Positions 1 through 36,670 of a stretch of DNA of 36,670 bases are shown one piece after another. The DNA is from a virus. The position numbers and the translations under genes were made by a program. The stretch covers positions 1-36,670 of IMG/VR virus record IMGVR_UViG_3300045988_060017; one strand, written 5' to 3'. How positions within the stretch are numbered: the first letter of the stretch is position 1; the number at the start of each line of letters is the position of its first letter. Under the pieces are notes generated by a model. The model made no database searches. It worked only from the letters and a program-made list of their open reading frames with translations, and was not told where the DNA came from.

Positions 1-50
1 TAACAGAACCGGAAGTAACAGAACCGGAAGTAACAGAACCGGAAGTAACA
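1..50 (+). repeat. 15-bp coding tandem repeat GAACCGGAAGTAACA (PEVTE), start-of-window part. It is continuous with 36616-36670.
   Basis: taaca + 3 perfect units at 6-20, 21-35 and 36-50, then a degenerate gaacctaccgagccggaagca. Confidence 0.95.
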
Positions 51-206
51 GAACCTACCGAGCCGGAAGCAGAACCGACCGAGGAGGAAATCGCCGCAGC
101 AAAACGCAGCGCAGCCGCAAAGAAGGCCGCAGCTACTAGAGCAGCAAAGAAGGCCGCAGAAGAAGCCGAAAAAGCCGAAAATGCGGATATCTCCGAGTTT
201 GAATAA
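1..206 (+). CDS. 3' portion of the gene that starts at 36286 and crosses the window junction. It encodes the rest of a (PEVTE)n linker and an Ala/Lys-rich C-terminal helix (AAAKRSAAAKKAAATRAAKKAAEEAEKAE). Virion-assembly protein of unknown role, possibly scaffold-like.
   Basis: 36286..36670 is 385 nt (128 codons + 1 nt). The split codon g|ta (Val) and the frame continue at position 1 to TAA at 204-206. The 15-bp repeat unit is continuous across the junction. Confidence 0.7.
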   Translation, partial: TEPEVTEPEVTEPEVTEPTEPEAEPTEEEIAAAKRSAAAKKAAATRAAKKAAEEAEKAENADISEFE

Positions 207-220
207 TTAATTTAAAGGGC

Positions 221-1378
221 ATGATAGACGGAAAAAGAATATATCTAGCAGTCCGCAAGGCTATTAACCTACTTCCGCGACAGGCGGAAGGGGTTGTTAG
301 CTATGATGCGGATAACCTGTACCCGCAAAGGATAGCCAACCTTATAGACGCTAGCAAAACCGCTACGGCGTGCGTGGCAAAAGCCGCCGAGAATATAGTA
401 TGTGAAGGCTTCGCCGTGGAAGAGTTCGCCCGTATGACGAACGATAACGGGCAGGACATGAACGACATACTAGAATTTATCGGGGAGGACATTCCGAGAT
501 TTCGCGGTTATGCGCTGATAGTGCAGTACGGAGGCGACTACAAGCCGAAAGCGGTGTATCCTGTTCCGTTCGGCTATGTCCGCGCAGTACTTAACAAGAA
601 TTACAAGGAGAATAGCCGCGTAAACAAATGGTTAGTATTTGATAACTGGGACAGGGGGATGCTGAAGGACACTAACAGCAAAACCGGAAAGATATACCCC
701 ACATTCAACCCGGCTAAATTTGCCGAAGAATGTGAGGAATACGGAGGAATCGAGAATCACCCGGGACAACTGTATTATAGCAATTTTTCGAACCGTGTAC
801 CCTATCCTACCAGTCCGTTTCACGCGGTGCAGCCCGAAATGGCAGCGGAACGCGGAAACGCCATGTATGTGGAGAACGTATTATCTAGAGGGTTCCACGC
901 ATGTAGCATAGTTACGCACGGAGATTTTGAATCAGACAGGGAACAAGACGATTTCCGCGAAGCCCTTACAAATATGATGGGCGTTGAGGGGACCGGAGCG
1001 GTATTAACGGTACGTGACACAGCCGTAGGCATATCGGACAAACCATTTATCAGAGTGGAACAGGTAGGAACGCCAATAGACGCCGACCTGTATGAAAAGT
1101 ATTCCGAACCGTTACGCAAAGATATTGCAATAGCGTGTTATACTATCCCTATCCCGCTAATAGATTCATCATTAATTAACTTTGCGAATGCTTCCGGGGA
1201 AGTGGTTAAAGAGATGCAGAAAGTGTACAGGCGCTCGCTATCCCGAGTACGTGAACGCATATCTAGAGATTTGGCGTACATCTTTGACCTAGATACTGCA
1301 ATTACTGATATAAATAACAATCTCGAAGGGGAAGCGGTGGACACAGCCGCCACGAAACCCGGAGAACAAACCGTATAA
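221..1378 (+). CDS. Putative portal protein (385 aa)
   Basis: ATG preceded by an A/T-rich leader. The central segment FREALTNMMGVEGTGAVLTV...DADLYEKYSEPLRKDIAIACYTIPIPLI resembles the portal pattern 'G..naG..lvl ... f.e.r..i..af.iP..ll'. A connector-like gene follows. No other portal candidate is present in the genome. Confidence 0.55.
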   Translation: MIDGKRIYLAVRKAINLLPRQAEGVVSYDADNLYPQRIANLIDASKTATACVAKAAENIVCEGFAVEEFARMTNDNGQDMNDILEFIGEDIPRFRGYALIVQYGGDYKPKAVYPVPFGYVRAVLNKNYKENSRVNKWLVFDNWDRGMLKDTNSKTGKIYPTFNPAKFAEECEEYGGIENHPGQLYYSNFSNRVPYPTSPFHAVQPEMAAERGNAMYVENVLSRGFHACSIVTHGDFESDREQDDFREALTNMMGVEGTGAVLTVRDTAVGISDKPFIRVEQVGTPIDADLYEKYSEPLRKDIAIACYTIPIPLIDSSLINFANASGEVVKEMQKVYRRSLSRVRERISRDLAYIFDLDTAITDINNNLEGEAVDTAATKPGEQTV

Positions 1379-1380: not shown

Positions 1381-1821
1381 ATGGCATATCCTATTGCAAG
1401 ATTAAGAAGTTTGTTTTCTCTAGCGGCCGACGTCAAGGATGCCGACCTAGAGAAAGCATTTTATGAGGCTGACCAACTAGATGTCAAGCCCCAAATTTGT
1501 ATGACCTACGAGGCCACTCCACAAGAATACAAGCCGGATAATGACAATTACGCAGGACTTGACACCGTTATATGCTATTATGCTTTCGCGCGCTACGTGC
1601 AGACGAGTGAACTGAATAGCACGGCAAGCGGAATTAAGATACAGAACTACCTGGGTAGCTACATATTGCCGGACGTCAACAAGGCCAAGAGATTCGAGGC
1701 CGAGAGAGGGAAGGCGGACCAATTTATAGAGCCGCTTTTGGAACAACTCCGAAAAGACGGGCTATTAAAAGATTCGTGCGAATGTAACAGAGTACAAAGT
1801 AGAATATGTTTAATAAGGTAA
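1381..1821 (+). CDS. Hypothetical virion protein, possibly a head-tail connector/adaptor (146 aa)
   Basis: Starts 2 nt after the portal stop. The N-terminus (ARLRSLFSLAADVKDADLEKAFYEAD) resembles gp6-like connector N-termini. Position is between the portal and the lysis cassette. Confidence 0.35.
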   Translation: MAYPIARLRSLFSLAADVKDADLEKAFYEADQLDVKPQICMTYEATPQEYKPDNDNYAGLDTVICYYAFARYVQTSELNSTASGIKIQNYLGSYILPDVNKAKRFEAERGKADQFIEPLLEQLRKDGLLKDSCECNRVQSRICLIR

Positions 1822-19672: not shown

Positions 19673-19690
19673 AGTGTACTAAAAGGTTTT

Positions 19691-20138: not shown

Positions 20139-20164
20139 TTTGAGGTAGGAATGTAGTATATTTG
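20139..20164 (+). promoter_or_regulatory. Candidate late promoter: TTTG at 20139-20142, -7 TATATTTG at 20157-20164
   Basis: The TAnnTTTG box lies 28 nt upstream of the terS ATG. The spacer to the TTTG is only 14 nt, which is suboptimal. Confidence 0.45.
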
Positions 20165-20192
20165 CTGTCAATAATTAAGAATCAATTTATGT

Positions 20193-20894: not shown

Positions 20895-20900
20895 CGTTAT

Positions 20901-22231: not shown

Positions 22232-22907
22232 AAAAGGATTTTACGGCCTTGAATGGCTGATACTGCAAGAGCGGACCAACTGGAAAGGAAAGGTTAAAAA
22301 TGTCTTTCGGCGCGTGTACTATGCACTTTGTCGGTATAATAACTGCAAACAGTTAGAATATATTTGTAACTTGCACCCGTGTTATGAGGGGGGCCTAACT
22401 TCCGACCAAAGTAAGTTATTGGAAAAATTGTCGGAGTACGTCAAGGCCTCCCCGTTCATAACCAAAAAGCTAAAGACCGTGTACGTCATTCCGAGCATTG
22501 AGAAAGTCACGCTATGGCAGCTAATCGAGACGAGACGAGCCGAGACGGCAACGGAGAAGGTTACGAAGTGGTGCACCCCGGTTGAGGGACAGACAGCCGA
22601 GTATTCACCCGACAACGTATATCACTTGCTAACCGCGATGAAGTACATACGGGAGCAGATTAAGGCGGCCGACGATTTGGAACGAACGCTATTCCCACAG
22701 GGCGCAGGAGGGCCGGACGCAGAGCCGGACACGCTAAAGGAGGCAAAGAACATATTGACGCTAGTACAGGCTACGGCGGAGTTGTTCAACTGCTCGTTCG
22801 AGGAGGCGAAACGGATAAATTACCTAGACGCTATATTGGCACTGTCCAAGAGGCACGAGGAAGTAGAAAAGGAAAAAGCGGAAATGAAGAAACATTTTAA
22901 CAAATAA
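22224..22907 (+). CDS. Hypothetical late protein (227 aa); start moved from TTG 22215
   Basis: ATG 22224 is in frame, three codons after the TTG used by the ORF track. No motif recognised. Confidence 0.6.
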   Translation: MSKKGFYGLEWLILQERTNWKGKVKNVFRRVYYALCRYNNCKQLEYICNLHPCYEGGLTSDQSKLLEKLSEYVKASPFITKKLKTVYVIPSIEKVTLWQLIETRRAETATEKVTKWCTPVEGQTAEYSPDNVYHLLTAMKYIREQIKAADDLERTLFPQGAGGPDAEPDTLKEAKNILTLVQATAELFNCSFEEAKRINYLDAILALSKRHEEVEKEKAEMKKHFNK

Positions 22908-22910
22908 CTT

Positions 22911-24893
22911 ATGATTAAAAAGTATGAGATAATCACAGTGGGAGGCAACAAGCGCGTAAAGGCGCTTCGGTCTTTTAGCGTACAAGGTCGTTACGTTAAC
23001 GTGGGCGATGTAGGCGGTATAGTCTATGACGAGAACACATTGTCACAGGAGGGCAACGCGTGGATATTTAGCGGTAATCTGAACTATCCGTCTATCCGTG
23101 TGGGAGGCGATAGCATTGTAGACACGAACGGATACGAAGGTGCAGTAACCGAACCTAGACCGTTCGTTAACATTACAGGTACTTCGGCCCTTATCGGCGC
23201 ACACGAGTTCGTTACGAGAAAGGTATCAGCCGCAAAGGTGCTTGCAGTAGGTGACGTAGAGCAGGGGGGTATAGGTGCCGCTATTGGTTATACTTATGAC
23301 GAGGCCAAAACGATAAGCTCGAATAGCATACGGACAAAGTCCCTTATCTATATGGGCGGCGCTTCTGTCACAGTTACGTTAGCGAGCGAAGGATACGAGA
23401 TGCGATTAGTACGGTACAATGCAGAAAAGAAATCGGTGGGCGGGTCTGCCTATGGAAATAGCGTCAGCACGGAGGGGGCATATTACGTTGGGGTTCAAAT
23501 TAGGAAAACCCCGGTAGCCGCAGTAGTTCCGGCAGATATCGTAGCCGCAAAGGTTACCATACCGTCAACAGCCATTGAAAGTACACTTAACATCAACGAC
23601 AGCCGGATAGTGTTTAACTACACTAGCGCAATGACTGTTACAACTAAGGTTAATGCGGGGAACACTCAATATGTAGATGTATATAAATCCGTAATTGACG
23701 GAAGTAACCTATCTATCAGTAAGACGGGTAACGGAGCATTTGCAGCTAACATACTTGCAGATGTGATTAAGTGTAACGTAGAATGGCGGTTGGTTTCTGC
23801 TAATAGCCTGCTTATTGGTAATTTTTACAACATTGGAAGGCTAGTAAATGACGGTTCATACTCATTTGCCGTGTCGTGTGTGACGAAAAATAAGATTATC
23901 GCTAGGGATTGCTACGCATTCACCCAATCGGAACAGGTCATACCTAAGGACGCACTTAGCGCCCTATCTGTTAGTTTTCCGTTTAAATTCATCCGTTGTA
24001 ACGTTGAAAATGGTATATTCTACCACAACCCGGTTAACCGCAATGTGTACACGGATATCGACTTTTCGAAAGCTAGCGCCGATTTGGGTAAAGCTCTCAT
24101 ATTCGGTACTCTATGCAGTTCGGAGGTTGAAGGAATGTACCGCGTGTATCACGTAGCTAGCGAAAAATTCGGCGCACTAGTGGAAAGCTACGACAGTATT
24201 AAAGATGCCGACTTTTCAAATTTGGCGACTATGGTCGATACCACGATTTACAAGGATGCAAAACTAACCGGGCTATTTAACATCTCGGGTACAAACGTAT
24301 TCGGCGGAACCGGAAACCACGGAGGCGGTAAAGGCTGCGAGATAACCAACACGAAAGAAACGGAAATGGTTATATCGGGCAATGTCCGTGTAGAGGGTAA
24401 CGCCAAGGTTAAAAATACTAGAATCACCGGAACGGGCTACTTTGGCGGGAACTCCGTTACGGAGAATGCCTACATATTCGGCTCCGCATACGTGACGGAT
24501 AACGGCGTTTTCTCCCCCGCCCAGGAAGAAGGAAAGTTCGATTCTGATATACACATAGAGGACAACGCTAAATTTTTGGCTACGTCTCGGGCGGGGAGTA
24601 CCGTTGTATATATGTGCGGAGACTCCGAGTTTTCCGGCACCATTGCATTTAATACCATTTCCTTGGCAATGTACGGAAAGTCTAGAATAGCTGGGAAGGT
24701 ATCCGGAAGAGGCGTATTAATACTAGAGGATAATGCGGATACGTCCAACAAGAATGTAGAGGTATACGGCTGTATTCGCCTTGTCGGAAATTACCGTCAA
24801 ACCAAAGAAAAGATATGGACGGGTAGGCGGACAATCAGCAGCGAGAACGAACCTACATACGATAACAACGTAAAAACTAAGTATGACTTTTAA
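22911..24893 (+). CDS. Beta-helix tail fibre/spike-like protein (660 aa)
   Basis: The C-terminal ~200 aa carry imperfect short repeats typical of parallel beta-helices (GNVRVEGNAKVKNTRITGTGYFGGNSVTENAYIFGSAYVTDNGVF...IHIEDNAKF...GDSEFSGT...GKSRIAGKVSGRGVLILEDNAD). The N-terminus is similar (VGDVGGIVYDENTLSQEGNAWIFSGNLNYPSIRVGGDSIVD). Confidence 0.5.
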   Translation: MIKKYEIITVGGNKRVKALRSFSVQGRYVNVGDVGGIVYDENTLSQEGNAWIFSGNLNYPSIRVGGDSIVDTNGYEGAVTEPRPFVNITGTSALIGAHEFVTRKVSAAKVLAVGDVEQGGIGAAIGYTYDEAKTISSNSIRTKSLIYMGGASVTVTLASEGYEMRLVRYNAEKKSVGGSAYGNSVSTEGAYYVGVQIRKTPVAAVVPADIVAAKVTIPSTAIESTLNINDSRIVFNYTSAMTVTTKVNAGNTQYVDVYKSVIDGSNLSISKTGNGAFAANILADVIKCNVEWRLVSANSLLIGNFYNIGRLVNDGSYSFAVSCVTKNKIIARDCYAFTQSEQVIPKDALSALSVSFPFKFIRCNVENGIFYHNPVNRNVYTDIDFSKASADLGKALIFGTLCSSEVEGMYRVYHVASEKFGALVESYDSIKDADFSNLATMVDTTIYKDAKLTGLFNISGTNVFGGTGNHGGGKGCEITNTKETEMVISGNVRVEGNAKVKNTRITGTGYFGGNSVTENAYIFGSAYVTDNGVFSPAQEEGKFDSDIHIEDNAKFLATSRAGSTVVYMCGDSEFSGTIAFNTISLAMYGKSRIAGKVSGRGVLILEDNADTSNKNVEVYGCIRLVGNYRQTKEKIWTGRRTISSENEPTYDNNVKTKYDF

Positions 24894-25281
24894 AGGAATA
24901 TTAGACGACGTATCAACATGGGCGGGCCGACACGGCCTACCCGTGTTTTTCGGAGACGAGTACACGCGTAACGTTCTAGCGAACCAAATTACGGGTGACT
25001 TCGTTTTCGTCGATGTGCCCGGAGGGATTCAGACATATTCCGATTTGGCACCTGAGCCGTTCGGGGTATCGGTACTTATCCAGGTGCTGGGAACGTCTTT
25101 CTACCTACGCAACGATGCAGAGGAAATAGAAGTCCTAGACAGGACTTTCGCCGTTATTACAGACATTGCCAAGCAAGCAGGGTGTAATTACATTAGCGGG
25201 GCTGCAAATGTCGTCAAACGGCAGAATATTTACGATAGTCCTAAATCGGGGTGGGAAATAACTATTAATATATCCGAGTAA
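24883..25281 (+). CDS. Hypothetical virion protein (132 aa)
   Basis: ORF in the late array, overlapping upstream by 11 nt. Confidence 0.55.
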   Translation: MTFKGILDDVSTWAGRHGLPVFFGDEYTRNVLANQITGDFVFVDVPGGIQTYSDLAPEPFGVSVLIQVLGTSFYLRNDAEEIEVLDRTFAVITDIAKQAGCNYISGAANVVKRQNIYDSPKSGWEITINISE

Positions 25282-25727
25282 TGGCAAAGAATCCGATAAC
25301 ACAGATTGAAGTGCTGCTAACCAAGCTACGCGACGATATCGAACAGTCGTACATTCAGAAGGGGCTAATAGCTTCCGGTAACTTCGGGCGCGAACTGAAA
25401 CTGACTGTTAGCGGCAACAACGCGAAGATAACCGCACCGCGCTATGTCGGGGCAATGGAGGGAGGACGCGCAGCCGGAAGGCGCCCACCGTTATCAGTCA
25501 TTAAGCGTTGGATAGAGGACAAGAACCGTAGAGGGGCTAACATACCGATAGAAGCGGCATATCCTATCGCCAAGATGATAGGCGAGGAGGGAATAAAGGT
25601 TCCCAACGACCATAACCCGGGCGGCGTGGTGTCGGATGTACTTAACCCGGCTAGAGTATTGTCATTGCAGAATGACATTATAACGATAATACGATATGCG
25701 ATTATTGACACATTAAATATTGAATAA
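25281..25727 (+). CDS. Hypothetical virion protein, possibly neck/tail-completion (HK97 gp10-like) (148 aa)
   Basis: TAATG coupling at the start. APRYVGAMEGGRAAGRRPP...IKRWI weakly resembles gp10-type proteins. Confidence 0.35.
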   Translation: MAKNPITQIEVLLTKLRDDIEQSYIQKGLIASGNFGRELKLTVSGNNAKITAPRYVGAMEGGRAAGRRPPLSVIKRWIEDKNRRGANIPIEAAYPIAKMIGEEGIKVPNDHNPGGVVSDVLNPARVLSLQNDIITIIRYAIIDTLNIE

Positions 25728-28300
25728 TGAATGTATATTTACCTATAATCAACAAGACGCTAGTAAGTAGCGAGTTGATTGACGAATCCAACTTCTATTT
25801 GCAACCTATCCCGGTATGGCCTACAAGGTCGTACACGATTACCATTACGCCGGAAAACTCCGCAAAGGACGTAGAGATATCTATTTCCCAATCCGGGGAT
25901 GACAAGTTCCTAAAGAATATCCCGTATTCACCTAAGATTGAGTTTGATTTGTCAATAGTGGGCACCATAATAAACCCGTTAACGCGTGACCAATCATTGG
26001 CAGATGGCGGAGGTAGCGATTTAGGGCTATTAACTATAAAGCACAATAGCAAATCTTGTATGCTTATTTTGTTTAACGCGGATGTTTCCGTGCATATGAT
26101 GCCCGCGCTAGGCGGAACCAATTTCAAGTTTCCGGTAAAGCCGAGAATCCCCGGACAGCCATACGACATTATTATGCCGTCTTTGTCGTGGGAAGATAAC
26201 GGGATTACTAATTACGACATCACGTGTGAACCTGTGGACGATTACCACGGCCCGCACGTGTTCCCCACCAAGTATTACCTAGGCGAGACAATAGATATCA
26301 GGTTCATAAAGAAACTAACCGTTAAGAGTCCGAATACTGGCGACACGGTAGCCGTAGCCGAGTATGAAAATAAGTTGCCGCAAGCCGTGGCAAATGACGA
26401 CCAAATGTTATGCGCCGCGCGCCTACGGTGGAATATGCGTAATGGGCAATGGATGTGGTACGCATTTAAGGACTACTTTTGGAACGAGGGATTCACTTAT
26501 ATGCGTGGTTTGGGCGGCGCGTCCGAGCAGGGCATTCTGACTATCAACGTAGCATATGCAAAGGAGTTTTATCCGGCATTCCAAGAGTTGTTAGTTTCCT
26601 CCAATATCGAATTGACACTGCCGAAACAGTTCCCCACAGTAGCCGAGGAGCAACGGTACAAAATGGAGATTACAAGTGACACGGGCGCACGGTGGAGCGG
26701 TTCGGAGCGTGTGTACCGCCAACAGATTACATTGCGTACTACCGGCTTTATGGACAATTATATACCGCCCGTTGAACCGGACGCACCCGCAACTATCCCC
26801 GTAGCATTTACCGCTACTCTGTATGAGCATACGTATCCGTACTTTGCCGATATAAATGATATTACGAACGTTACTAGTAATGTCAAGTGGGACTTAGTGC
26901 CGCAGGTTGATTGGCTGTTCCCGGTATCGCCCGCAGACGGAAAAGGGACTATCGGATTCACGCCTGTATCAACTAGACGCACGGCGAATCCTAACACGAC
27001 AGCCCGAACGGGATACATTCATTTCATTAAGGCGGGAACCACCGAGCAGATAGGAGGTATAAAGGTAAATCAGAACGGGGCGCCCGCAGTAAATACCACA
27101 CTAAAGTTTTTGCCGATGTCATCCAGGGGCGAATCGAAGTCGTTTACGGTGCGTTGCGTAACACAAGGAAGGGGGACGTTGCAAGTTAGAAATATGGCAG
27201 GTGCTAGTGGTGCATGGGTTAACCTAGACGCTAGCCAATTGGAGCAGGACGGAGGAGATGTGTATGTGAACCCGGCGAATAATTTGCCGGAAACCGGAGG
27301 CGTTCCGCGCTCGTGCATTATCCGCACTACACACGACATAACCGGACAAAAGGCAGATGTAAATGTTACGCAGTCAGTGGCTTGTCCGGTAGACCGTTTC
27401 CCGAACGATTTCAAATGGGGGGGCAAAGGTATGTATGCATATGACGGAAATGCGCATAATGATAATGAATTTACATTTACTTCCGGAATACCTTACACCG
27501 ATATGGTTGGGGAATGTAATCGTAGCTACGTAACTAATATTAGAATAGTACGTGTAGCACCTAACATTAAGCTAAAGTTTAATTTGGCGCAAAACGCGGG
27601 TCCCGGGGCGGACACTGATAGATTTGCGCGTATCAACGTCAAGCACGTACCCACAGGAAAAATATTGGGAACCGTAGTGATATTCCAACGCGCGTACAAC
27701 AACGCGCCTACTAACTATGTGTACGCTAGTTGGGACACATTAGAGGCAGGAGAAGGAAATATGCATTACTTTGATTTGATAACAGCCGCATCTACGGTTC
27801 CTAGCCTTGTACCGCCTTCACAGGCTAGAACATATAATATTGACAGCCTCAATGTAAATGGGGTGCAACTTAATAAGTTCCGCGTTATGCTAGATTGGAA
27901 TCCCGGACGGACCCGAACTATCAATTTATCTGCGAACGTTACAGGGGCTTCGGGGAACATTCCGATTATACAGTATTCCAACGTTGACGCTATGGCAATA
28001 TCATCTAATCAGATTTGGCACAGGTTAGACCCGGTATGGGTGCTGAGTGCCCCGAACGAAAGAACCGCAGAAATAGCGGTGCAGGCGCAAAAGCTAAACC
28101 AACGTGATGAGATATCGTTCTTCCGGTTAGATAGTTGGGTAACGCTAGATTCAACCGCCATAGACCCTAATAACGATTATATTAGAAAGTTCAATTTGCG
28201 GATAACGGCCAATACGACAGGCGCGGCACGGGGTACGGAGATACGGTTCCAAAGACCAGGGATATCTGATATAATTATACGAATCGAACAGGCAGGATAA
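25727..28300 (+). CDS. Large tail/adhesin-like protein with about four C-terminal BACON/Ig-like modules (857 aa)
   Basis: The C-terminal half contains repeated modules ending in N....R..I.......V.Q. Examples are KWDLVPQVDWLFPVSP..G.GTIGF...NPNTTARTGYIHFI...IKVNQ, ...VPRSCIIRTT...ADVNVTQ, ...DTDRFARINVKH...VVIFQ and ...NTTGAARGTEIRFQ...IIRIEQ. Confidence 0.5.
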   Translation: MNVYLPIINKTLVSSELIDESNFYLQPIPVWPTRSYTITITPENSAKDVEISISQSGDDKFLKNIPYSPKIEFDLSIVGTIINPLTRDQSLADGGGSDLGLLTIKHNSKSCMLILFNADVSVHMMPALGGTNFKFPVKPRIPGQPYDIIMPSLSWEDNGITNYDITCEPVDDYHGPHVFPTKYYLGETIDIRFIKKLTVKSPNTGDTVAVAEYENKLPQAVANDDQMLCAARLRWNMRNGQWMWYAFKDYFWNEGFTYMRGLGGASEQGILTINVAYAKEFYPAFQELLVSSNIELTLPKQFPTVAEEQRYKMEITSDTGARWSGSERVYRQQITLRTTGFMDNYIPPVEPDAPATIPVAFTATLYEHTYPYFADINDITNVTSNVKWDLVPQVDWLFPVSPADGKGTIGFTPVSTRRTANPNTTARTGYIHFIKAGTTEQIGGIKVNQNGAPAVNTTLKFLPMSSRGESKSFTVRCVTQGRGTLQVRNMAGASGAWVNLDASQLEQDGGDVYVNPANNLPETGGVPRSCIIRTTHDITGQKADVNVTQSVACPVDRFPNDFKWGGKGMYAYDGNAHNDNEFTFTSGIPYTDMVGECNRSYVTNIRIVRVAPNIKLKFNLAQNAGPGADTDRFARINVKHVPTGKILGTVVIFQRAYNNAPTNYVYASWDTLEAGEGNMHYFDLITAASTVPSLVPPSQARTYNIDSLNVNGVQLNKFRVMLDWNPGRTRTINLSANVTGASGNIPIIQYSNVDAMAISSNQIWHRLDPVWVLSAPNERTAEIAVQAQKLNQRDEISFFRLDSWVTLDSTAIDPNNDYIRKFNLRITANTTGAARGTEIRFQRPGISDIIIRIEQAG

Positions 28301-28301
28301 A

Positions 28302-30038
28302 ATGGAGACAGTAAAATTAAAGATTAACGGAAATTACGTGGAGGGCCTTTCGGGGTCCTCTGTAAAACTCACAGTCAACAATATATCACCCGTCACAATG
28401 ACAGGTGACAGTGTGGCATTTTCGGCTACTATCAAAGTGCCGAGGACACTCAACAATGACAGGACGTTCATTAACTTGCAAAAGGGTATGCACGAGTGCA
28501 TTTTTTACGATTGTCAGTTACTCGTGTACGGGCTTCCATTCCAATACATGGGCTATGATGTGGAGTTCTACGCTAAAGTATCATACAATGGCGGGAATTA
28601 CTCTATATCGCTAGTCGAAAATACGCAGAAGTGGAGCGACGAAGAAATACGGATACAACATAAGCTAGAGCAGGTAGAGCAGATGTTCGCCGGGTGGCTG
28701 AATGCGTCGCGGGTCGTCAATCTAGAAAAGATTATCAATGACCATATTACATGGAAAGAGGGCGAATTTCCGGTTCTCACCCCGAAAAACAACGAGGGGG
28801 CAGAAATACCCGAACCGATAGATGCGGCGCTGCTAAAGCCTACTATTATGATATTCCGTTCATCTATCGTATGGGATAATGATGTAGCATCCGGTAATAT
28901 GACTCTAGTACCTAAGGAATACACGAAGGGCCGGGGCGGATATATCTATCCGGATATTGCGCAGGTAGTAATATCCGATACCACGAAAGCCCTGTATGCC
29001 ACTCTTTTCGGGCTAGCCCCGGGCGGGCAAAATCCCGGGTTCAATATCCGGTCGGGCGTAGGGCGCGATATCCGTATGATAGTGGAGTACACAGGCACTA
29101 CCATTCCTAGCGGGTTGCCGGAACTGCACATAGTAGCGGAATCCACCAATTTAACGGAGTGCATTCTATATGCCCGTTCAAGGCTGACCGACCGCATTTG
29201 GCTGTACGTATCACCGCTTAACTCCGTGGCGTTCGTCACTCCTACGAGCGACAAGTATATGATACTGAAAGGGCTGATAGGCGGGGTCAAGCAGTCATGC
29301 TTCAAATTCCCGAACGGATACGCGCCGGAAGAACTCATTGATATGGGAGAAGGGAAAGCGGAAGTACTGACAGCGTACAGGCCCGCAGCCGGAACAATAG
29401 TAACCGGAACGGGGTTCCCGTATTCGGACGTCAAAAAAATGGTGGATGACCTGTGTACGGCGTTCCATTGGCGGAAGCAGTGGCGGAACAAGACATTAAG
29501 TATTGAGCCAATCATACACCCGTCAATACGTGATAGGAAAGACGACAGGCATAAATACATAGTTGATTGGAGCGATAGGTTTTCCGGAGTGGACACGATA
29601 GAAGTTCCGGATGAGTTTGCCGACCAACTTGTAACGCAGGTGGGCGATGTAAAGTACAGCTACTCGATAGGGCCCGGGACACTTAATCCGGTGAAGGACG
29701 CATATAAATCCGGCTTGCCATTTGCGTATAACTTTATGGCATTTCCGAAAGTCGCGCTAACATCCAAGTTCACCACAGGCGGAACCGCTACGTATGTGAC
29801 TGCACTAGAAGACATTTACAGGATGTATATAAAGAGGCACTTCAAGTTATTCGCGCCTAGAATGCAGGTTAAAATCAAGGCGCGGTTAAGCTATTCGGAC
29901 GTTATCAACCTAAAGTTGGACAGGGCGTATTACTTTTCGCAGTTGGGCGGATATTTTTACATAAAATCCCTAGGCGAATATGACGTAACTAAAGGAGATT
30001 GCAAGCTATCTTTGTACAAATTGGATTTAACGAACTAG
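28302..30038 (+). CDS. Tail tip/baseplate-like structural protein (578 aa)
   Basis: A large late ORF between the BACON-like protein and the tape-measure-like gene. The N-terminus VKLKINGNYVEGLSGSSVKLTVNN resembles distal-tail protein N-termini. Confidence 0.4.
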   Translation: METVKLKINGNYVEGLSGSSVKLTVNNISPVTMTGDSVAFSATIKVPRTLNNDRTFINLQKGMHECIFYDCQLLVYGLPFQYMGYDVEFYAKVSYNGGNYSISLVENTQKWSDEEIRIQHKLEQVEQMFAGWLNASRVVNLEKIINDHITWKEGEFPVLTPKNNEGAEIPEPIDAALLKPTIMIFRSSIVWDNDVASGNMTLVPKEYTKGRGGYIYPDIAQVVISDTTKALYATLFGLAPGGQNPGFNIRSGVGRDIRMIVEYTGTTIPSGLPELHIVAESTNLTECILYARSRLTDRIWLYVSPLNSVAFVTPTSDKYMILKGLIGGVKQSCFKFPNGYAPEELIDMGEGKAEVLTAYRPAAGTIVTGTGFPYSDVKKMVDDLCTAFHWRKQWRNKTLSIEPIIHPSIRDRKDDRHKYIVDWSDRFSGVDTIEVPDEFADQLVTQVGDVKYSYSIGPGTLNPVKDAYKSGLPFAYNFMAFPKVALTSKFTTGGTATYVTALEDIYRMYIKRHFKLFAPRMQVKIKARLSYSDVINLKLDRAYYFSQLGGYFYIKSLGEYDVTKGDCKLSLYKLDLTN

Positions 30039-30041
30039 AGT

Positions 30042-32555
30042 ATGGCAGACCAAGTAACATTATTAGACTTAAATTTTGGAACGTCAGAGGCTGAAAAAGG
30101 CCTCGACGCTCTGATAGCAAAGAGTATAGCGCTTGCAAAGACCAAAAAAGATTTACAAGCTGCGTATAACACTGAAAAATCAGCCCTTGACGCTCTTAAC
30201 CAAAATTACGCGGACGGGCTTGTATCACAAGACAAGTACGAGGCGTCAGTTCGGAAGCTGAACAAGGAAATGATAGAGACAAAAAAGGCTCTATTAGACA
30301 ATGCGAACGCGCAGAAGGAGAACAACGCCGAGATTAAGAGTACCAAGACGTTGTTAGACAGCGAGGCCACAAGCGTTAACGCGCTGCGTGCACAGTTGGC
30401 ACAGAACACCGTGGAACTTAACAAGATGTCCGAGGCGCAGCGCACTACTAGCAAGGAGGGGATAGAACTTACCGAACAAACCAAGGCGCTATCCGACAAA
30501 CTGAAAGAGCTAGAGAAGTCCGTAGGGGACAACCGTAGAAACGTGGGTAACTATGCGGAAAGCGTCAAGGAGGGAATTTTGCAAACGCAGGGTCTATCCG
30601 GTGGGACTGGCGCGCTAGTCGGCGCAATGAAAAGCGGGATAACAGGCGTACAGGCATTTAACGCGGCATTGAAGGCGAACCCGATTCTATTCATAGTTAC
30701 AACCGTGTTAACGCTTATCGGGCTGATTGAAAAGATGATTAAGCGTAACAGCGACTTATCAACTAGCCTAAAGGCGGCATTTGCACCGTTTCAAACAATT
30801 ATAGGGCGGTTGTTGGACTACATAACGGAGTTGTTCACGGCCCTTGCAAAGGCCTTTGAATGGCTAGCTGAGAAAATAACGTGGCTACTCAATAAGATAG
30901 GGCTTATATCGGACGCCACGTTGGAGGCCGCCCGGAGTGCTAGCGCTCTAGAGAAGGAAATGCAGCGCATATATAAGGCGGAAACGGATATGCTTGTGCC
31001 TATGGCACGGATGAAAAGGGAAATGGAGGAGTTAAAGACCCTAGCGGCCGACCAAAACAAGAGCACCGAGGAACGCCGGAAACTGTTAGAGCAGGCGACC
31101 GAGAAACTGCACGCTATCCGCGACATGGAGGTACAGATACTAGAGGCCAAGTACAAGCAAATTAAAGCCCAAAATGAGTTGGGATACACATCAGACGAGG
31201 ACGCACGGAAGGAGCAGGAAGCCCTAGCAGCGCTAGAGCAGGCCCGCGCCAATTACGCTACACAGGAGAAAGAAATATACGGGCAGTTGACAGGTTACGA
31301 AAAGGCGGATGCGGCGGCCAAACAGGCAAATATTAAGGCAGCACTAGAAGCTAGAAGGAAAGCCGCGGAGGACGCAGAAAAGGCAGAAGTGGACGCGGCA
31401 AGACGTGCGGCGGATGAGAGGACTAAAGCGCAACAAGCCATATTGAAGCAATACGCGGACGCTATCGAGGCTATGCAATTGCAGATTGCCGAGAACGAAT
31501 TGAAGAACGGCGCGGCAACACTGGAAGAACAACAGCGGGTTATCAACGCACAGATTGAGGCGGAAAAGTACAAGAGGCAGCAAAACCTAATTGGAGAGCA
31601 AGAATACCTCAACAACGTGAAGGCCCTGCAACTAGAGTTTGCCGCGTCAGTGAAGGCCGAGGAGGACGCACGGATGCAGGCAGACCGGGACCGTAAGGCA
31701 ATGGAGATTGAGAACCAAAGACAACTAGACGATATCAAGTTAGGCAACTCGCTAGAGGCCGACCTTATCCGGCTGAACATGAAAAGAGACGCGGAGGTAG
31801 CCGCAGCCGAGGCGATAGGAGCCGAGACGGACAGCATATATGAGCGTTACGAACTTATCAAGGAACAGAGGGAAAGAGCCGCAGCGAACGCGCGTGTAGC
31901 TTTGGCAGGTGATGTAGCCGGGCAATTGTCCACGCTGTTAGGTGAAGAATCCGAAGCCGGTAAAGCCGCCGCGATAGTGCAGGCCACTATCAACACATAT
32001 CTAGGCGCTACCAAGGCATTGGCGCAGGGCGGATTCCTTGGAATCGCACAGGCCGCTATTGTAGTCGCCGCGGGGATGAAGCAAGTAATGAGCATTACGA
32101 AAACCAAGGAGCCAGATACCAAGGTACGCACGCCGTCAGCGAAATACGCGAAGGGTGGACAGATTTACGGCCCTAGTCATTCCGCCGGGGGTGTAACGTT
32201 CGTAGGCTCCAACGGGCAGCGATTCGAGGCCGAAGGAGGCGAGAACATGTACATTCTTAACCGGAAGGCTTCCGGGGCTATTAACGCGCTGTCAGCACTT
32301 AATATGGAGTACGGCGGGCGTTCTTTCGGTTCTTCCGGTGTGTACCGTTACGCGAACGGGGGGAAAATTTCGGTAGGGTCTAACGGCACGGTTAGAATGC
32401 CCTCAAATTTCGCCTTATCTGATGACAGCCTGTACAAGTTAGCCGCGATTATGTACGATTCGGTAGCACGCGTTCCAGCGCCGCAGGTCGCAGTGACGGA
32501 CATAAATGAGGAAACCGAGCGCGCGCAGAGCGTACAGGTGGCGGCAGGCATATAA
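30042..32555 (+). CDS. Tape-measure-like protein (837 aa)
   Basis: Long Ala/Glu/Lys-rich coiled-coil regions, two hydrophobic segments (ILFIVTTVLTLIGLI; GFLGIAQAAIVVAAGM) and a Gly-rich C-terminal domain (KGGQIYGPSHSAGGVTF). Confidence 0.6.
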   Translation: MADQVTLLDLNFGTSEAEKGLDALIAKSIALAKTKKDLQAAYNTEKSALDALNQNYADGLVSQDKYEASVRKLNKEMIETKKALLDNANAQKENNAEIKSTKTLLDSEATSVNALRAQLAQNTVELNKMSEAQRTTSKEGIELTEQTKALSDKLKELEKSVGDNRRNVGNYAESVKEGILQTQGLSGGTGALVGAMKSGITGVQAFNAALKANPILFIVTTVLTLIGLIEKMIKRNSDLSTSLKAAFAPFQTIIGRLLDYITELFTALAKAFEWLAEKITWLLNKIGLISDATLEAARSASALEKEMQRIYKAETDMLVPMARMKREMEELKTLAADQNKSTEERRKLLEQATEKLHAIRDMEVQILEAKYKQIKAQNELGYTSDEDARKEQEALAALEQARANYATQEKEIYGQLTGYEKADAAAKQANIKAALEARRKAAEDAEKAEVDAARRAADERTKAQQAILKQYADAIEAMQLQIAENELKNGAATLEEQQRVINAQIEAEKYKRQQNLIGEQEYLNNVKALQLEFAASVKAEEDARMQADRDRKAMEIENQRQLDDIKLGNSLEADLIRLNMKRDAEVAAAEAIGAETDSIYERYELIKEQRERAAANARVALAGDVAGQLSTLLGEESEAGKAAAIVQATINTYLGATKALAQGGFLGIAQAAIVVAAGMKQVMSITKTKEPDTKVRTPSAKYAKGGQIYGPSHSAGGVTFVGSNGQRFEAEGGENMYILNRKASGAINALSALNMEYGGRSFGSSGVYRYANGGKISVGSNGTVRMPSNFALSDDSLYKLAAIMYDSVARVPAPQVAVTDINEETERAQSVQVAAGI

Positions 32556-32594
32556 TTGATAGGTAAATAACCCCTTAAATGTAGTTTAATATCA

Positions 32595-32602
32595 TAACTT
32601 TG
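32595..32602 (+). promoter_or_regulatory. Candidate internal late promoter, -7 box TAACTTTG
   Basis: It lies in a 68-nt intergenic gap, 22 nt upstream of the protease/scaffold ATG. There is no clear -33 TTTG. Confidence 0.35.
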
Positions 32603-32623
32603 TAACGCAATTAACATAACTAC

Positions 32624-33628
32624 ATGAAAAAGTTTGAAAAATTACGAATAATCGAGGCAGGAGAAACCAAAAATGCCATAGAGGACAACGGGAAAAGATA
32701 TAAATTAGTCATTTCCGCAAAATGTTTTCCGTCCCTCGTGGCCCTCGGGAACGAACGACCAATTCACGCACGCCGCACACATAACGGCGATGATTTGTTA
32801 GACGGGTATATAGGGCATTTTACCAACTTCTCGCATGATGAAAATGCGGTTTACGCGGATTTAGCAATGTCAGAAGCCCTGGAAACCGCATACCCTTCTG
32901 AATTCGCCTTCATGGTAGCCATGATTGAGAAGGAACCGGAATTGCTAGGCGTATCCGTCAATCAAATGGACGTTAAGGTTTTCGATGAGGAAGCGGAAAC
33001 GGCTACTGTTACAGAGGTGACAGAACTTTTCAGCGCTGATTTGGTAGGGCTTCCCGCCGCGACTAGTTCACTATTTAGCAATAATAATTTTAAAAATTCA
33101 AAGAACATGAGCAAATTTTCATTTAAAGGCCTGATTTCGTCTTTCTCCAAGACGAAGCTAGCGACCGAGACATTTACAACCGTAGACGGAACAGAAATCG
33201 TAGTTTCCGCAGCAGGTGACGAGGTGCAAGTAGGTGACGCCGTTACACTAGCGGACGGAAGCCCGGCGCCGGACGGAGATTACCAAATCACCACGCCGGA
33301 CGGGGATATTATTCTAGTCGTTGAGGGTGGCGTAATTGCGGGAGTCAAAGACATAGAGGTAGAAGAACCGGAAAAACTTGCAGAAGAAACCAAAACCGAG
33401 GAAGAGAAGAAAACGCCCACACCGGAAGAACTTGCAACGTTACAAGCCGAAGTTACCGCTTTGAAAACGGAAATCGCGGGGCTGAAAACCCAGTTAAACC
33501 GCAAAACCGGAACCCCTAGCCCTGCAAAGACCGAGCTAAAGACCGAGAAGAAGCCCAAAGAGGAAACCAAGTTAAGCCGTGAAGCCGTTCAGAAGGCATT
33601 CAAGGAAAACCGTAACAAGTGGCGTTAA
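32624..33628 (+). CDS. Prohead protease-like N-terminal domain fused to a scaffold-like acidic coiled-coil C-terminus (334 aa)
   Basis: ELFSADLVGLPAATSS resembles the C-terminal 'S.V..PA' motif of the S78/U35 protease family. The C-terminal half is acidic and coiled (EELATLQAEVTALKTEIAGLKTQL). It lies directly upstream of the capsid gene. Confidence 0.45.
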   Translation: MKKFEKLRIIEAGETKNAIEDNGKRYKLVISAKCFPSLVALGNERPIHARRTHNGDDLLDGYIGHFTNFSHDENAVYADLAMSEALETAYPSEFAFMVAMIEKEPELLGVSVNQMDVKVFDEEAETATVTEVTELFSADLVGLPAATSSLFSNNNFKNSKNMSKFSFKGLISSFSKTKLATETFTTVDGTEIVVSAAGDEVQVGDAVTLADGSPAPDGDYQITTPDGDIILVVEGGVIAGVKDIEVEEPEKLAEETKTEEEKKTPTPEELATLQAEVTALKTEIAGLKTQLNRKTGTPSPAKTELKTEKKPKEETKLSREAVQKAFKENRNKWR

Positions 33629-33664
33629 TATTAATCATTCATCAAAATTAAAAATTAGAAACTT

Positions 33665-34618
33665 ATGGCATTTACATTTAGTGACTTAAACAAATTGAAC
33701 ATTGACAGTCTGTCAGATGTTATTTCTTTAACGCTAGGTTTGGAAGGTGAACTTTCCACAGGCGTAACGGTGTTATCCGGGATTGAGAAGGGTAAACCTA
33801 TCTTGACCTTTTCGGCAGCAGACAAGGCGGTAAGACGCTCCGCAGGATGCGACAGCGAGTACAAGTACAGTTCTTTGCAGGACAAAGTTAAATATTACGA
33901 CCATGCACAGATAGAATTGCCTATCGTGGTTTGCTTGCAAGATTTATGGGGCAGAATGGTAGCTAAAGGTGTACACTTGTCAGACGAATTCGACCAAACT
34001 CAGTTGGCGGCGTTCATGCAGTCGGAAATTCTGAAAGTGTTGGAAGCCGATATGTTGCGCCTCGTGTGGTTGGACGGCTTGAAAACCTCTGATACCAATG
34101 GAGAATACACCGTATTCAAAAATGGCGGCATCATCAAGCAAATGAACGACTCTACGGAAGAAGTCGGAACGTTCACTCCTACCGATACGGCTAGTGTATT
34201 GGCTACACTAAAATCGTGTATTGACACGCAGCGTGCAGACCAATTGAACACATCAGAATTTTTCGTATCAAGTAACGTTATGCGTGCGTACAAGAATCTC
34301 GTAGAATCCAAAGATAACCATTTGGCACAGGCTAACATGGAGGACGGAAAGCCCGCCTACTATTTTGAAGGATACAAAATCAACGAGTTGCGCCACGTAT
34401 CTAACAGCGCCAAGGGCGATGCATTAACGGTTCAGTCATTTATCGCGTTCACTCCGAAAACCAACATTCAGTTGGCGTTGGAAGATTCCGCATTGAACAT
34501 TGCGCCGTTCATTCAAGATGCGAAAGACCGCAAGTATTACAGTACTACTGTGTTCGCTGCTGATGCTATGTTGGCGGTTCCTCAGTACATGAAATTATAC
34601 ACCGCCGCAGGCGTTTAA
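33665..34618 (+). CDS. Major capsid protein (317 aa)
   Basis: Called from its position after the protease/scaffold gene, its size and an A/T-rich leader of the shared type. No family motif verified by eye. Confidence 0.6.
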   Translation: MAFTFSDLNKLNIDSLSDVISLTLGLEGELSTGVTVLSGIEKGKPILTFSAADKAVRRSAGCDSEYKYSSLQDKVKYYDHAQIELPIVVCLQDLWGRMVAKGVHLSDEFDQTQLAAFMQSEILKVLEADMLRLVWLDGLKTSDTNGEYTVFKNGGIIKQMNDSTEEVGTFTPTDTASVLATLKSCIDTQRADQLNTSEFFVSSNVMRAYKNLVESKDNHLAQANMEDGKPAYYFEGYKINELRHVSNSAKGDALTVQSFIAFTPKTNIQLALEDSALNIAPFIQDAKDRKYYSTTVFAADAMLAVPQYMKLYTAAGV

Positions 34619-34636
34619 TCAACTAAAACAAAAAAT

Positions 34637-35170
34637 ATGGCTTGTATAAAGGCACTAGATAAGGCAATAGCATATAATTGCGAGGTTGGCGCAATAGGTT
34701 TACGGGAATTGTATCTCGTAAACGTCGCCGACATCGATACTATGACCGTATCAGCCGCCAATATTATCACGGCCTTAACATTAAAATCGGGGGCTAAAAC
34801 AGTCCCCGTTGATATAGTTAAAAATGGCGTGAAAGTAACGGAGGCTCTAAAAGCTACGGACGTGTCTAATGGGCTAGACCAAATGCTAACAATTGTATTA
34901 TACAATAAATCGGCGAACAGTACCATAATATTAGACGCACTTATGAACGGAAGGTTTATGGCAGCGGTATCTTATAGAGATTTGACGGCTAGCCGGGCTA
35001 TGCTTGGCACTATGTGCGGTCTAGAAGTATCCGACATTCAGACGGACAGCAGCGCGAACGGGGGATTTACTACAATTACGTTAAAGACACCGGACGACGC
35101 GAAAGGGGAAAAAAGAACCCTACTCGATACGCCCGCATGGACTACAATAGTTAACGCTAAACTTATATAA
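34637..35170 (+). CDS. Virion protein, paralogue 1 of 3 (tail-tube-like?) (177 aa)
   Basis: MACIKALDKAIAYNCEVGAIGLRELYLVN...LMNGRFMAAV...ANGGFTTITLKTPD. It aligns along its length with the next two ORFs. Confidence 0.45.
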   Translation: MACIKALDKAIAYNCEVGAIGLRELYLVNVADIDTMTVSAANIITALTLKSGAKTVPVDIVKNGVKVTEALKATDVSNGLDQMLTIVLYNKSANSTIILDALMNGRFMAAVSYRDLTASRAMLGTMCGLEVSDIQTDSSANGGFTTITLKTPDDAKGEKRTLLDTPAWTTIVNAKLI

Positions 35171-35172
35171 CT

Positions 35173-35703
35173 ATGGGATGTATATCAAAATTAAATAGGG
35201 CTATCTTAGTGGACTGCAATAGCGGCGCCACGGGCATTGAAGAATTGTTGCTAATCAACTATTCCGAGATTGCTACGCGTGACTTGTCGGCTGGGCAAGC
35301 TACGTTAACGCTGTCAAGCGGCGGGAAAGCTATCTTAGTGGAGTCCAATAAGAAGGGCGTTAACGCCTCATCAGAGGCCCGTATTAACGACAATGCGCCC
35401 GCCGGACTTGCTGATACTGTAACCTTTACGATTTACAGTAAGGACCAAAATAGCGCGGATATCGTGAACCGTATCTTAAACGGTCGGTTCGTGGCAGTCG
35501 CTAAGATGAAAGAGAAGAATATATACCGTGTGTACGGGCTAGTGTACGGGCTTAATATGTCCGCCTACACAGAAGAAGCCAATGCAAACGGTGGGTTTAC
35601 AACAATAACGTTAACGACGCCGGAAAACGTGATAGGCGAGCAGCGCGCACACTTCAATCCGACGACATATACGACGTTAAGAACGGGCGCTATTGTAGCG
35701 TAA
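35173..35703 (+). CDS. Virion protein, paralogue 2 of 3 (176 aa)
   Basis: MGCISKLNRAILVDCNSGATGIEELLLIN...ILNGRFVAVA...ANGGFTTITLTTPE. Confidence 0.45.
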   Translation: MGCISKLNRAILVDCNSGATGIEELLLINYSEIATRDLSAGQATLTLSSGGKAILVESNKKGVNASSEARINDNAPAGLADTVTFTIYSKDQNSADIVNRILNGRFVAVAKMKEKNIYRVYGLVYGLNMSAYTEEANANGGFTTITLTTPENVIGEQRAHFNPTTYTTLRTGAIVA

Positions 35704-35714
35704 AGGAGGTAAAT

Positions 35715-36266
35715 ATGGCATGTATTAAGAAATTAGAACAGAACGTCACCTTTGATTGCGCGAAGGCGAAAGAACCTACCTCAATGCGTGGAATAGAGGA
35801 GCTTATATTAATTAATTATTCCGATATTAGCAATTATTCGGTAGATAACGTGGGACTGGCGTCAATCACTATGGCTAAAGGAACTAAAGGTTACGTATTC
35901 ACTAGCGTAAATAACTCCGTATCGGTTAGTATAGCAGCCCGCGTCAATGACGCTATAATTACGGCGGAGGAACACTCCGTTATAATAAAGCTGATTGACA
36001 ATGGAGGTACTGTCGGAGCTAGGGAACTATCAAACTTAATTAATTCTCTTCGTATTGGGACATTTGCGGCGTGTGTAACAACTACGTCCGGTAACAGACT
36101 AGTATACGGTCTTATGTCGGGGCTAGAATGTTCCGAAATTGTAGGGGATTCCACGACGGACGGACTTATTACAATAACACTAAAGACGCCGGATAGCGCA
36201 GGAGGGGATAGAATGCTAGCTATTACCGAAGGCACATATAACGGGCTGAAGACGCCAAAGGTATAA
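35715..36266 (+). CDS. Virion protein, paralogue 3 of 3 (183 aa)
   Basis: MACIKKLEQNVTFDCAKA...MRGIEELILIN...LRIGTFAACV...TDGLITITLKTPD. Confidence 0.45.
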   Translation: MACIKKLEQNVTFDCAKAKEPTSMRGIEELILINYSDISNYSVDNVGLASITMAKGTKGYVFTSVNNSVSVSIAARVNDAIITAEEHSVIIKLIDNGGTVGARELSNLINSLRIGTFAACVTTTSGNRLVYGLMSGLECSEIVGDSTTDGLITITLKTPDSAGGDRMLAITEGTYNGLKTPKV

Positions 36267-36285
36267 CAATTTAAACTAAAATTAA

Positions 36286-36670
36286 ATGACTAAATTAACT
36301 GATATTGGACAGATTTTGGCGCTATGCGCGAAAATGACTAACTTAAAGTTGGAAGTAGTGTGCGGCTTTGATAGACAGTTCGCCACGAAATGGTACGAAA
36401 ATGAGTATCTTACCGGACGCCACGTGCGGTATGTGATGAAACCGGATAAATTCATAGCGTCCGTAGAGGACGGAAAGGTTTACCGGGCATTTAACACTCC
36501 GGATGCCAAGGCGGTTGAACTCATGGAAAGTAATCCGGAATACCGTGATTTCTTTATTGACATGGAGTCCGTTCCTAACACTATTCCGGAACTAGGTGAT
36601 GACCCGTTCACACCGGAACCGGAAGTAACAGAACCGGAAGTAACAGAACCGGAAGTAACAGAACCGGAAG
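36286..36670 (+). CDS. 5' portion of the junction-spanning gene (196 aa in total with 1..206): a globular N-terminal domain followed by PEVTE repeats
   Basis: ATG 36286 follows the leader caatttaaactaaaattaa. There is no stop before the window end, and the frame continues at position 1. Confidence 0.7.
   Translation, partial: MTKLTDIGQILALCAKMTNLKLEVVCGFDRQFATKWYENEYLTGRHVRYVMKPDKFIASVEDGKVYRAFNTPDAKAVELMESNPEYRDFFIDMESVPNTIPELGDDPFTPEPEVTEPEVTEPEVTEPE
36616..36670 (+). repeat. 15-bp coding tandem repeat GAACCGGAAGTAACA, end-of-window part
   Basis: Units lie at 36616-36630, 36631-36645 and 36646-36660. A 10-nt partial unit is completed by positions 1-5. Confidence 0.95.

Follow-up and report, generated by a model that had tools for sequence, protein, structure and literature searches.

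A tandem triplet of diverged paralogues with a predicted tail-tube fold in a siphophage of gut Bacteroides

Three paralogous genes between the capsid and portal genes

The window analysed here, IMG/VR virus record IMGVR_UViG_3300045988_060017 over its full length of 36,670 nucleotides, is a complete, circularly permuted genome of about 36.7 kb from an ARB25/SJC01-like siphophage of Bacteroides. Three consecutive open reading frames (ORFs), here called p1, p2 and p3, follow its major capsid gene:

34637..35170, + strand: p1, 177 aa, paralogue with a predicted tail-tube fold; fast-evolving; phrog_21217; AlphaFold2 (AF2) model available
35173..35703, + strand: p2, 176 aa, proposed bulk tail-tube subunit; the copy nearest to the single-copy ancestral form
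35715..36266, + strand: p3, 183 aa, the most derived copy, with insertions after Cys15 and before the helix

A first-pass annotation made from the sequence alone had described these genes as three tandem, full-length paralogues, and the ORFs, their end-to-end alignment and BLASTP bear this out: p1 and p2 are 37% identical (E 3e-36), p1 and p3 31% (E 5e-18), and p2 and p3 30% (E 5e-20). Because the alignment is full-length and the E values lie far beyond chance, paralogy of the three is certain. The genes are tightly packed, with 2 nucleotides between p1 and p2 and 11 between p2 and p3. The alignment also contains the elements that the annotation had quoted, namely Cys3 and Cys15 in all three proteins and the motifs G(I/L)(R/E)EL.L(V/I)N, NGRF.A and TITL(K/T)TP(D/E). 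The position given for the triplet, between the capsid and portal genes, is the right slot, but a further ORF (X) intervenes after p3, and the portal gene follows X only by virtue of the circular permutation of the genome.

Triplet and single-copy forms in related phages

Three copies occupy the capsid-adjacent slot in 11 of 11 gut Bacteroidales phage genomes or contigs inspected (BT04, BU241P1, PM93P1, BV737P3, BM127P4, BK735P1, BC679P1, BC669P2, IMG/VR L023 and L024, and ENA L030), and no loss was seen. Comparison with close relatives gives ratios of nonsynonymous to synonymous substitution rates (dN/dS) of 0.05-0.29 for each copy; thus p1, p2 and p3 are all under purifying selection. These results agree with the first-pass view that the triplication is ancient and maintained, and in the survey of related phages that it had suggested, more distant relatives proved to be single-copy. 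The latter comprise Cellulophaga phages phi13:1, phiST and phi19:2, Tenacibaculum phage Larrie, and the metagenomic contigs L016, L025, L034, L029 and L032, in which the gene lies directly after a capsid-like gene. On contigs of sufficient length, the single-copy gene order is tape measure, scaffold/protease, capsid, tube, small gene and portal. For the homologue in Cellulophaga phage phi13:1 (gp022), the annotation as a virion protein is based on tandem mass spectrometry (MS/MS), and Larrie is a siphovirus by transmission electron microscopy (TEM), with a tail of about 99 nm (PMC10013915).

Searches of phage records with tblastn placed p1 at 355 sites in 138 records, p2 at 365 sites in 143 records and p3 at 370 sites in 137 records, and scans of IMG/VR with the family representatives P0345, P0257 and P0264 returned no loci. 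In neighbour-joining trees the copies form three groups that match gene position. The single-copy sequences of L029, L032 and L034 group weakly with the p3 clade (52% bootstrap) and not outside the triplet; this grouping, if real, would point to secondary loss of copies or to a more complex history of duplication. Two candidate additional members were rejected: the fourth ORF of about 180 aa in BT04-like phages is the unrelated protein X and not a fourth paralogue, and the 128-aa gene between the capsid and tube genes of L016 is not a diverged member of the family (hhalign probability 0.4%).

A widespread family with a conserved N-terminal cysteine pair

Searched with a profile, a set of 1.84 billion representative proteins yielded 700 clusters of the family (clustered at 50% identity) at E <= 1e-3. 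Most members are 170-200 aa long; among ten longer members tested, an IPT/TIG immunoglobulin-like (Ig-like) domain was found at the C-terminus of six, and BspA-type leucine-rich repeats in one. Ig-like C-terminal domains are familiar in siphophage major tail proteins. All PHROGs that the family matches are labelled 'unknown function' or 'virion structural protein'.

The cysteine pair that the first-pass annotation had noticed in p1, p2 and p3 extends well beyond the triplet. Among 119 full-length, diverse representatives, 113 have both N-terminal cysteines, three have only one and three have neither; the two columns are 96-97% conserved, which makes them the most conserved residues after one glycine. 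The cysteines are 9-12 residues apart, mostly 11, and 69 of the 119 proteins contain no further cysteine. The pair most plausibly cross-links neighbouring subunits or rings, or may instead bind a metal ion; with a spacing that varies and hosts that are anaerobes, either chemistry is tentative.

In GenBank, most records of orthologues of the three paralogues carry the name 'hypothetical protein', and those in PQ571271, PQ571272 and PQ571260 carry 'Holin', 'signal peptide protein', 'minor tail protein' or 'Head-tail adaptor'. The labels 'Holin' and 'signal peptide protein' were ruled out, as the proteins have no hydrophobic segment by reading and are predicted to be soluble beta-sandwiches.

Predicted fold

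An AlphaFold model of p2, built from 119 diverse sequences, has a predicted local distance difference test score (pLDDT) of 90 and a predicted template modelling score (pTM) of 0.85. It has a beta-sandwich, strands 63-70 and 78-87 that pair as a long hairpin, and a helix at residues 93-102; residues 1-20 form an N-terminal arm modelled with low confidence. The model of p1 is mediocre (pLDDT 68), having been built from a shallow alignment. Almost all matches of the p1 model among structures in the PDB, and most matches of the p2 model, are proteins of the tube fold: lambda gpV, SPP1 gp17.1, the SPR tail tube, the R4C and gene transfer agent (GTA) tubes, Hcp, and the pyocin and monocin tubes. 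The best matches of the p2 model are the tail tube of Bacillus phage SPR in its complexes with DSR2 (probability 0.97). Proteins of related rings were also retrieved, namely N-terminal domains of distal tail proteins and the neck, stopper or terminator rings of phiKZ, XM1, Pam3, T1 and T5. Matches in BFVD are mostly uncharacterised and include entries named 'Major tail protein' and 'Tail tube protein'. From these models we assign p1 and p2, with moderate confidence, a tail-tube fold composed of a beta-sandwich, a flanking alpha-helix and a long beta-hairpin.

The proposal of a tail tube in the first-pass annotation is thus supported by the predicted fold, together with the presence of a tape measure gene, the siphovirus relatives and the Ig-like fusions of the family. 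The motif comparison with lambda gpV by which the annotation had introduced it is no evidence, given that the family has no sequence match to curated tube families and none that is meaningful to solved structures. In Pfam scans of 19 members (the three ORFs and 16 homologues), none matched the tube families (Phage_tail_2/3, Phage_TTP_1 and others) down to E 10, and when profiles from alignments of 19 and 119 sequences were searched against PDB sequences, nothing beyond chance matches to unrelated proteins was returned. The statement that no other tube candidate is visible held up when the conserved virion-module families were compared with the tube profile by jackhmmer and hhalign, which revealed neither an extra paralogue nor any other tube gene in the genome.

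Unequal constraint and exchange of alleles

The three genes are among the fastest-evolving virion genes. Over five divergent genomes, mean pairwise identity is 32% for p1, 40% for p2 and 31% for p3, compared with 61% for the capsid protein, 60% for the portal protein and 51% for the tape measure protein. Judging from patterns of conservation, the three copies are not equivalent and p2 is singled out. It has 26 group-invariant positions, compared with 10 in p1 and 11 in p3; its orthologue was the sole copy matched by tblastn with Cellulophaga gp022; and under a hidden Markov model (HMM) of distant members, mostly of the single-copy type, bit scores are 106-126 for p2, 92-129 for p1 and 39-105 for p3. 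Constraint on p2 is strongest in the N-terminal arm, the long hairpin and the C-terminal motif NGG..T..TPE..GE, and the hairpin and helix of p3 are the least constrained among the three copies. Contacts between rings in tubes of solved structure are formed by the N-terminal loop together with the hairpin arm (PMC13576161).

Alleles of p1 and p3 have been exchanged independently between otherwise near-identical genomes, which results in gene-sized mosaicism. In L024, p1 (3817-4350) is 64% identical to its counterpart in the window, with a synonymous divergence (dS) of about 1, in a background where the capsid protein is 97%, p2 96% and the flanking genes 96-98% identical; in BC669P1, p3 is 53% identical, p1 79% and p2 89%. 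The opposite pattern was observed for p2 in the comparison with BC679P1, where its dS is 0.4 and that of its neighbours 1.0-1.7. Codon usage (NNC/NNT), examined as a proxy for expression, was uninformative, as it did not separate even the capsid gene from low-copy genes.

Proposed roles of the three paralogues

We consider it likely that these proteins belong to a virion family of the tail-tube fold whose single-copy form is the tube subunit. The family would be a hitherto unannotated siphophage tail-tube family, whose members combine a beta-sandwich, the helix beside it and a long hairpin with a flexible arm at the N-terminus that bears Cys-x(9-12)-Cys; in the more distant relatives, the one copy in the slot would presumably form the entire tube, and the clade of gut Bacteroidales phages would have undergone an ancient triplication and retained all three copies. 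For the triplet we tentatively favour a model in which p2 makes up the bulk of the tube, and p1 and p3 form rings of low copy number that are adapted to given places along the same channel. Under this model, p2 would assemble into hexameric rings stacked around the 837-aa tape measure protein; with the usual figures for tubes of 1.5 Å per tape-measure residue and about 40 Å per ring, the tube would contain about 30 rings and about 190 copies of p2. Rings of p1 and p3 might lie, for example, at the head-proximal and tip-proximal ends of the tube, positions at which they may be freer to diverge and recombine. The cysteines of the N-terminal arm could tie adjacent subunits or rings together, either through a disulfide formed after release or through a shared metal ion. 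We infer tube function, the division into bulk and specialised copies and the role of the cysteines from predicted structure, conservation and genomic context.

Several results weigh against this interpretation. The structural matches that suggest the tube fold have weak scores (best E values of 2e-3 and 8e-3, ranging to 1e-1; template modelling (TM) scores of 0.3-0.45; probabilities up to 0.97-0.98), so that the structure prediction proposed in the first-pass annotation, although both models retrieve mostly tube-fold proteins, supports a tube with this reservation; and because terminators, stoppers and distal tail proteins share the fold, fold alone is not proof of tube function. Sequence comparison connects the family with none of the curated tube families. 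Tube genes usually lie after those of the head-tail connectors and just 5' of the chaperone and tape measure genes, and a position between the capsid and portal genes, with the tape measure gene 5' of the head genes, is atypical. The groups of copies have a bootstrap value of 78% for p3 and modest values for p2 (52%) and p1 (25%). As the hosts are anaerobes, formation of a disulfide is uncertain. As for the division of labour, the shared length, the cysteine pair and most of the family motifs in all copies are as would be found in subunits that polymerise together; the tight packing of the genes is compatible with similar expression of the copies; and p1 and p3 have no obvious vacant role to fill, since single-copy L016 already has homologues of the small protein g148, the candidate distal tail protein g578, the tape measure and the portal.

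The same observations can be read as signs of an obligately heteromeric tube, in which two or all three paralogues are abundant and either mix in pseudo-hexameric rings or form homohexamers that stack in a set order; such a tube would be an unfused counterpart of the T5 and P74-26 tubes, whose proteins contain duplicated domains. Each copy is full-length and keeps the cysteine pair, G122 and the GL motif, and TP(E/D) at the C-terminus is largely kept as well; purifying selection acts on all of them, the remainder of the tail module is shared with single-copy relatives, and duplicated self-assembling ring proteins usually retain cross-interaction. Constraint is asymmetric, however, with p2 well above p1 and p3, particularly in the hairpin and N-terminal arm; alleles of p1 and p3 at 53-64% identity have been swapped into backgrounds in which p2 is at 89-96%; and a ring of composition (p1p2p3)2 would surround the trimeric tape measure with no more than two-fold symmetry. 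Literature searches for siphophage tail tubes that are heteromeric or made of several paralogues found no relevant case, and those aimed at virion proteomes of the Bacteroides phages were likewise without result. We regard a heteromeric tube as possible but doubtful, and a version in which the three paralogues are joined through the N-terminal cysteine pair as doubtful to the same degree. Another arrangement that would account for fast evolution and for the independent exchange of p1 and p3 alleles is a set of alternative or decoy tube subunits, interchangeable variants that evade tube-sensing host defences or suit different host surfaces; tail-tube proteins are known triggers of defence, and complexes of DSR2 with a tail tube are the top fold matches. 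Yet the three position-matched groups lie side by side, without losses, in every gut Bacteroidales phage inspected, which argues for three distinct required roles and not for redundancy, and makes decoys improbable.

It is unlikely, though less so than decoys, that the paralogues are instead neck proteins forming gpFII- or gpU-like rings that join head and tail or act as stoppers or terminators, with the real tube encoded by an unrecognised gene elsewhere. The location between the capsid and portal genes, the matches to neck, stopper or terminator chains of phiKZ, Pam3, XM1, T1 and T5, and the labels given by the depositors of BKR1, who call p3 'Head-tail adaptor' and whose structure-alignment notes on p1 and p2 begin 'Head-tail ...', are all in line with such roles. 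Lengths of 176-183 aa and a long hairpin, on the other hand, fit tube subunits better than neck proteins of 110-135 aa, the best matches of the high-confidence p2 model are to a tail tube, and the Ig-like C-terminal fusions of the family are typical of tube proteins. Moreover, the single-copy siphophage relatives would be left without a tube candidate, and four other small conserved proteins (X, g146, g132 and g148) are free to fill neck roles. The first-pass annotation had also offered decoration or cement proteins of the capsid as an alternative. Genes directly 3' of the capsid gene that evolve fast, as do those of exposed proteins, might encode such proteins, on which Ig-like fusions are found too; but the fold searches lend the idea no support, the matches being mostly of the tail-tube fold with no decoration or cement protein among the top PDB and BFVD matches of the models, and the phage would lack a tube protein despite its tape measure and siphovirus relatives. 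This is the least probable of the readings considered.

Comparison with known tubes and implications

In their predicted sandwich, helix and hairpin, the paralogues resemble siphophage major tail tubes (the N-terminal domain of lambda gpV, SPP1 gp17.1, SPR, R4C and the Hcp fold), which they also resemble in a length of about 175 aa, in their occurrence in a genome with a tape measure, in the Ig-like C-termini of some members and in having one homologue supported as a virion protein by mass spectrometry. They differ from those tubes in having no detectable sequence similarity to them and weak structural scores, in number (three copies compared with one), in the capsid-portal gene slot and in the near-universal N-terminal cysteine pair. 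The tube proteins of T5 (pb6) and P74-26 contain duplicated domains fused in one chain and form trimers; they share with the triplet a duplicated tube fold, by which non-identical tube domains may come to lie in one ring, but the triplet consists of three separate genes whose co-assembly is putative. In T4 (gp19, gp48 and gp54) and in AFP/PVC particles (Afp1, Afp5 and Afp7), a bulk tube subunit is accompanied by paralogues of similar size, which make up specific rings where the tube ends. This combination of bulk and position-specific paralogues is that of the model favoured here for p2, p1 and p3, although those systems are contractile and have baseplates; our literature searches brought up no siphophage whose additional tube rings are recognisable paralogues. 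Lambda gpFII, gpU and gpV, which Cardarelli et al. 2010 are said to have found to share one fold, likewise are three proteins of a single fold (in lambda, those of the head-to-tail channel) encoded 3' of the capsid gene. The lambda trio, however, has no sequence similarity and differs in size, whereas the paralogues described here are 30-37% identical and of matching lengths.

A plausible model for the cysteine pair is provided by the tube protein gp39 of NBD2, from the PF08813 branch, in which two conserved cysteines per subunit link adjacent rings and raise thermal stability (PMC13576161). The cysteines of gp39 are located in the core and the hairpin arm and occur in about 14% of its family; those of p1, p2 and p3 are both located in the N-terminal arm, 9-12 residues apart, and are conserved almost family-wide. 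The Pfam scans of 19 members found no match to PF08813.

The fold and the genomic context support the tube reading, and a three-component lattice is possible. To our knowledge, the tail tubes of long-tailed phages have been treated as homopolymers of a single protein; a heteromeric tube, if real, would be the first known tail tube of several gene products. The stable, diverged triplet is a feature of ARB25/SJC01-like siphophages of human-gut Bacteroides, Phocaeicola and Parabacteroides, and together with the single-copy relatives it offers a natural before-and-after comparison for a ring polymer that may have gained complexity after duplication, as well as three related proteins with which to test the common ancestry of tube, terminator and connector rings. 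The near-universal cysteine pair points to an undescribed, conserved cross-linking or metal-binding device in tail assembly, and the fast evolution and recombination of the putative tube paralogues may bear on host defence or on interactions with host surfaces. The GenBank labels 'hypothetical', 'Holin', 'signal peptide protein' and 'Head-tail adaptor' could be re-annotated.

Genome organisation and late genes

Among cultured phages, BC679P1-5 and BC669P1-3 of Bacteroides caccae are the nearest, with nucleotide identities of about 80%; wider relatives include the ARB25/SJC/HNL phages of B. thetaiotaomicron. SJC01, a cluster-alpha relative, is a siphovirus by TEM (bioRxiv 10.1101/2020.03.04.977157). 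The features that surround the triplet are the following:

24883..25727, + strand: g132 and g148, small virion-module proteins; candidate tail terminator and tail completion proteins
28302..30038, + strand: g578, candidate distal tail protein directly 5' of the tape measure gene; conserved, highly divergent tail-tip protein
30042..32555, + strand: tape measure protein, 837 aa (four tape-measure PHROG families, best E 1.3e-12)
32624..33628, + strand: scaffold or protease-like head assembly protein, by position and coiled-coil C-terminus
33665..34618, + strand: major capsid protein, 317 aa (weak PHROG head-protein matches; label given by the depositors of the BKR1 homologue)
36286..36670, + strand: 5' part of ORF X, with a small conserved N-terminal domain followed by an acidic (EPEVT)n repeat, by reading of the sequence
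1..206, + strand: 3' part of ORF X, the frame running exactly across the window junction
221..1378, + strand: portal protein (phrog_11226, E 2.3e-35)
1381..1821, + strand: DUF6712 protein, 146 aa, candidate head-tail adaptor (PF20459, E 7.6e-7), the role being assigned from position alone

ORF X encodes 196 aa in total: it starts at 36286, runs off the end of the window and resumes in frame at 1-206. When positions 36616-36670 and 1-55 are joined, they form a 15-nucleotide tandem repeat of about seven copies that encodes the (EPEVT)n of X, and because both ends of the window lie inside this repeat, the sequence is that of a circularly permuted genome cut within it. Homologues of X (99-196 aa) occupy the matching slot in all relatives; the type and number of the repeats vary (PETPE/PEAPE in BT04) or the repeat is absent.

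The order of the virion module is TerS, TerL, g230, a 660-aa protein, g132, g148, an 857-aa protein with a BACON domain, g578, tape measure, scaffold/protease-like protein, capsid, p1, p2, p3, X, portal, DUF6712 protein, holin and endolysin. A long tail is implied by the 837-aa tape measure. The structure-alignment label that the depositors of BKR1 gave to their homologue of the capsid gene is major capsid/XkdG, and the L016 gene in the slot of 32624..33628 matches head maturation protease PHROGs. The DUF6712 gene directly 3' of the portal gene is kept in all relatives, g132 and g148 are conserved across the five divergent genomes, and g578 has homologues in all relatives, single-copy L016 included, with a mean identity of 27%. 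Pfam and PDB-sequence profiles gave no usable match for g132, g148 or g146, and the depositors' structure-based notes on the BKR1 homologues of g132 and g148 read 'Putative tail component of...' and 'Bacteriophage ...'; the inventory of neck proteins is consequently based on position and third-party notes.

The late region (20193-36670 and 1-1821) has the tail-tip and tape measure genes 5' of the scaffold and capsid genes and the portal gene last, an unusual order that is also kept in the distant single-copy relatives L016 and L034. The 857-aa tail protein (25727-28300) ends in a BACON domain (PF13004, E 1e-8) and has no homologue in four divergent relatives, which makes it a probable host-glycan-binding receptor protein that belongs to the variable portion of the tail module.

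In the early or replication region, an unrelated ORF of 194 aa (4377-4961) contains an in-frame tandem repeat at 4666-4798 (18 nucleotides x 7.4 copies, 97% match), the consensus of which looks rich in proline and glutamate by inspection. The GC content is low at 3001-4000 (0.37) and 19001-20000 (0.35) compared with about 0.46 genome-wide; these stretches coincide with gaps between ORFs at 3213-3863 and 19418-20192, the second directly 5' of TerS, and could be regulatory, origin or packaging regions. An AT-rich 24-nucleotide repeat is located at 3370-3436.

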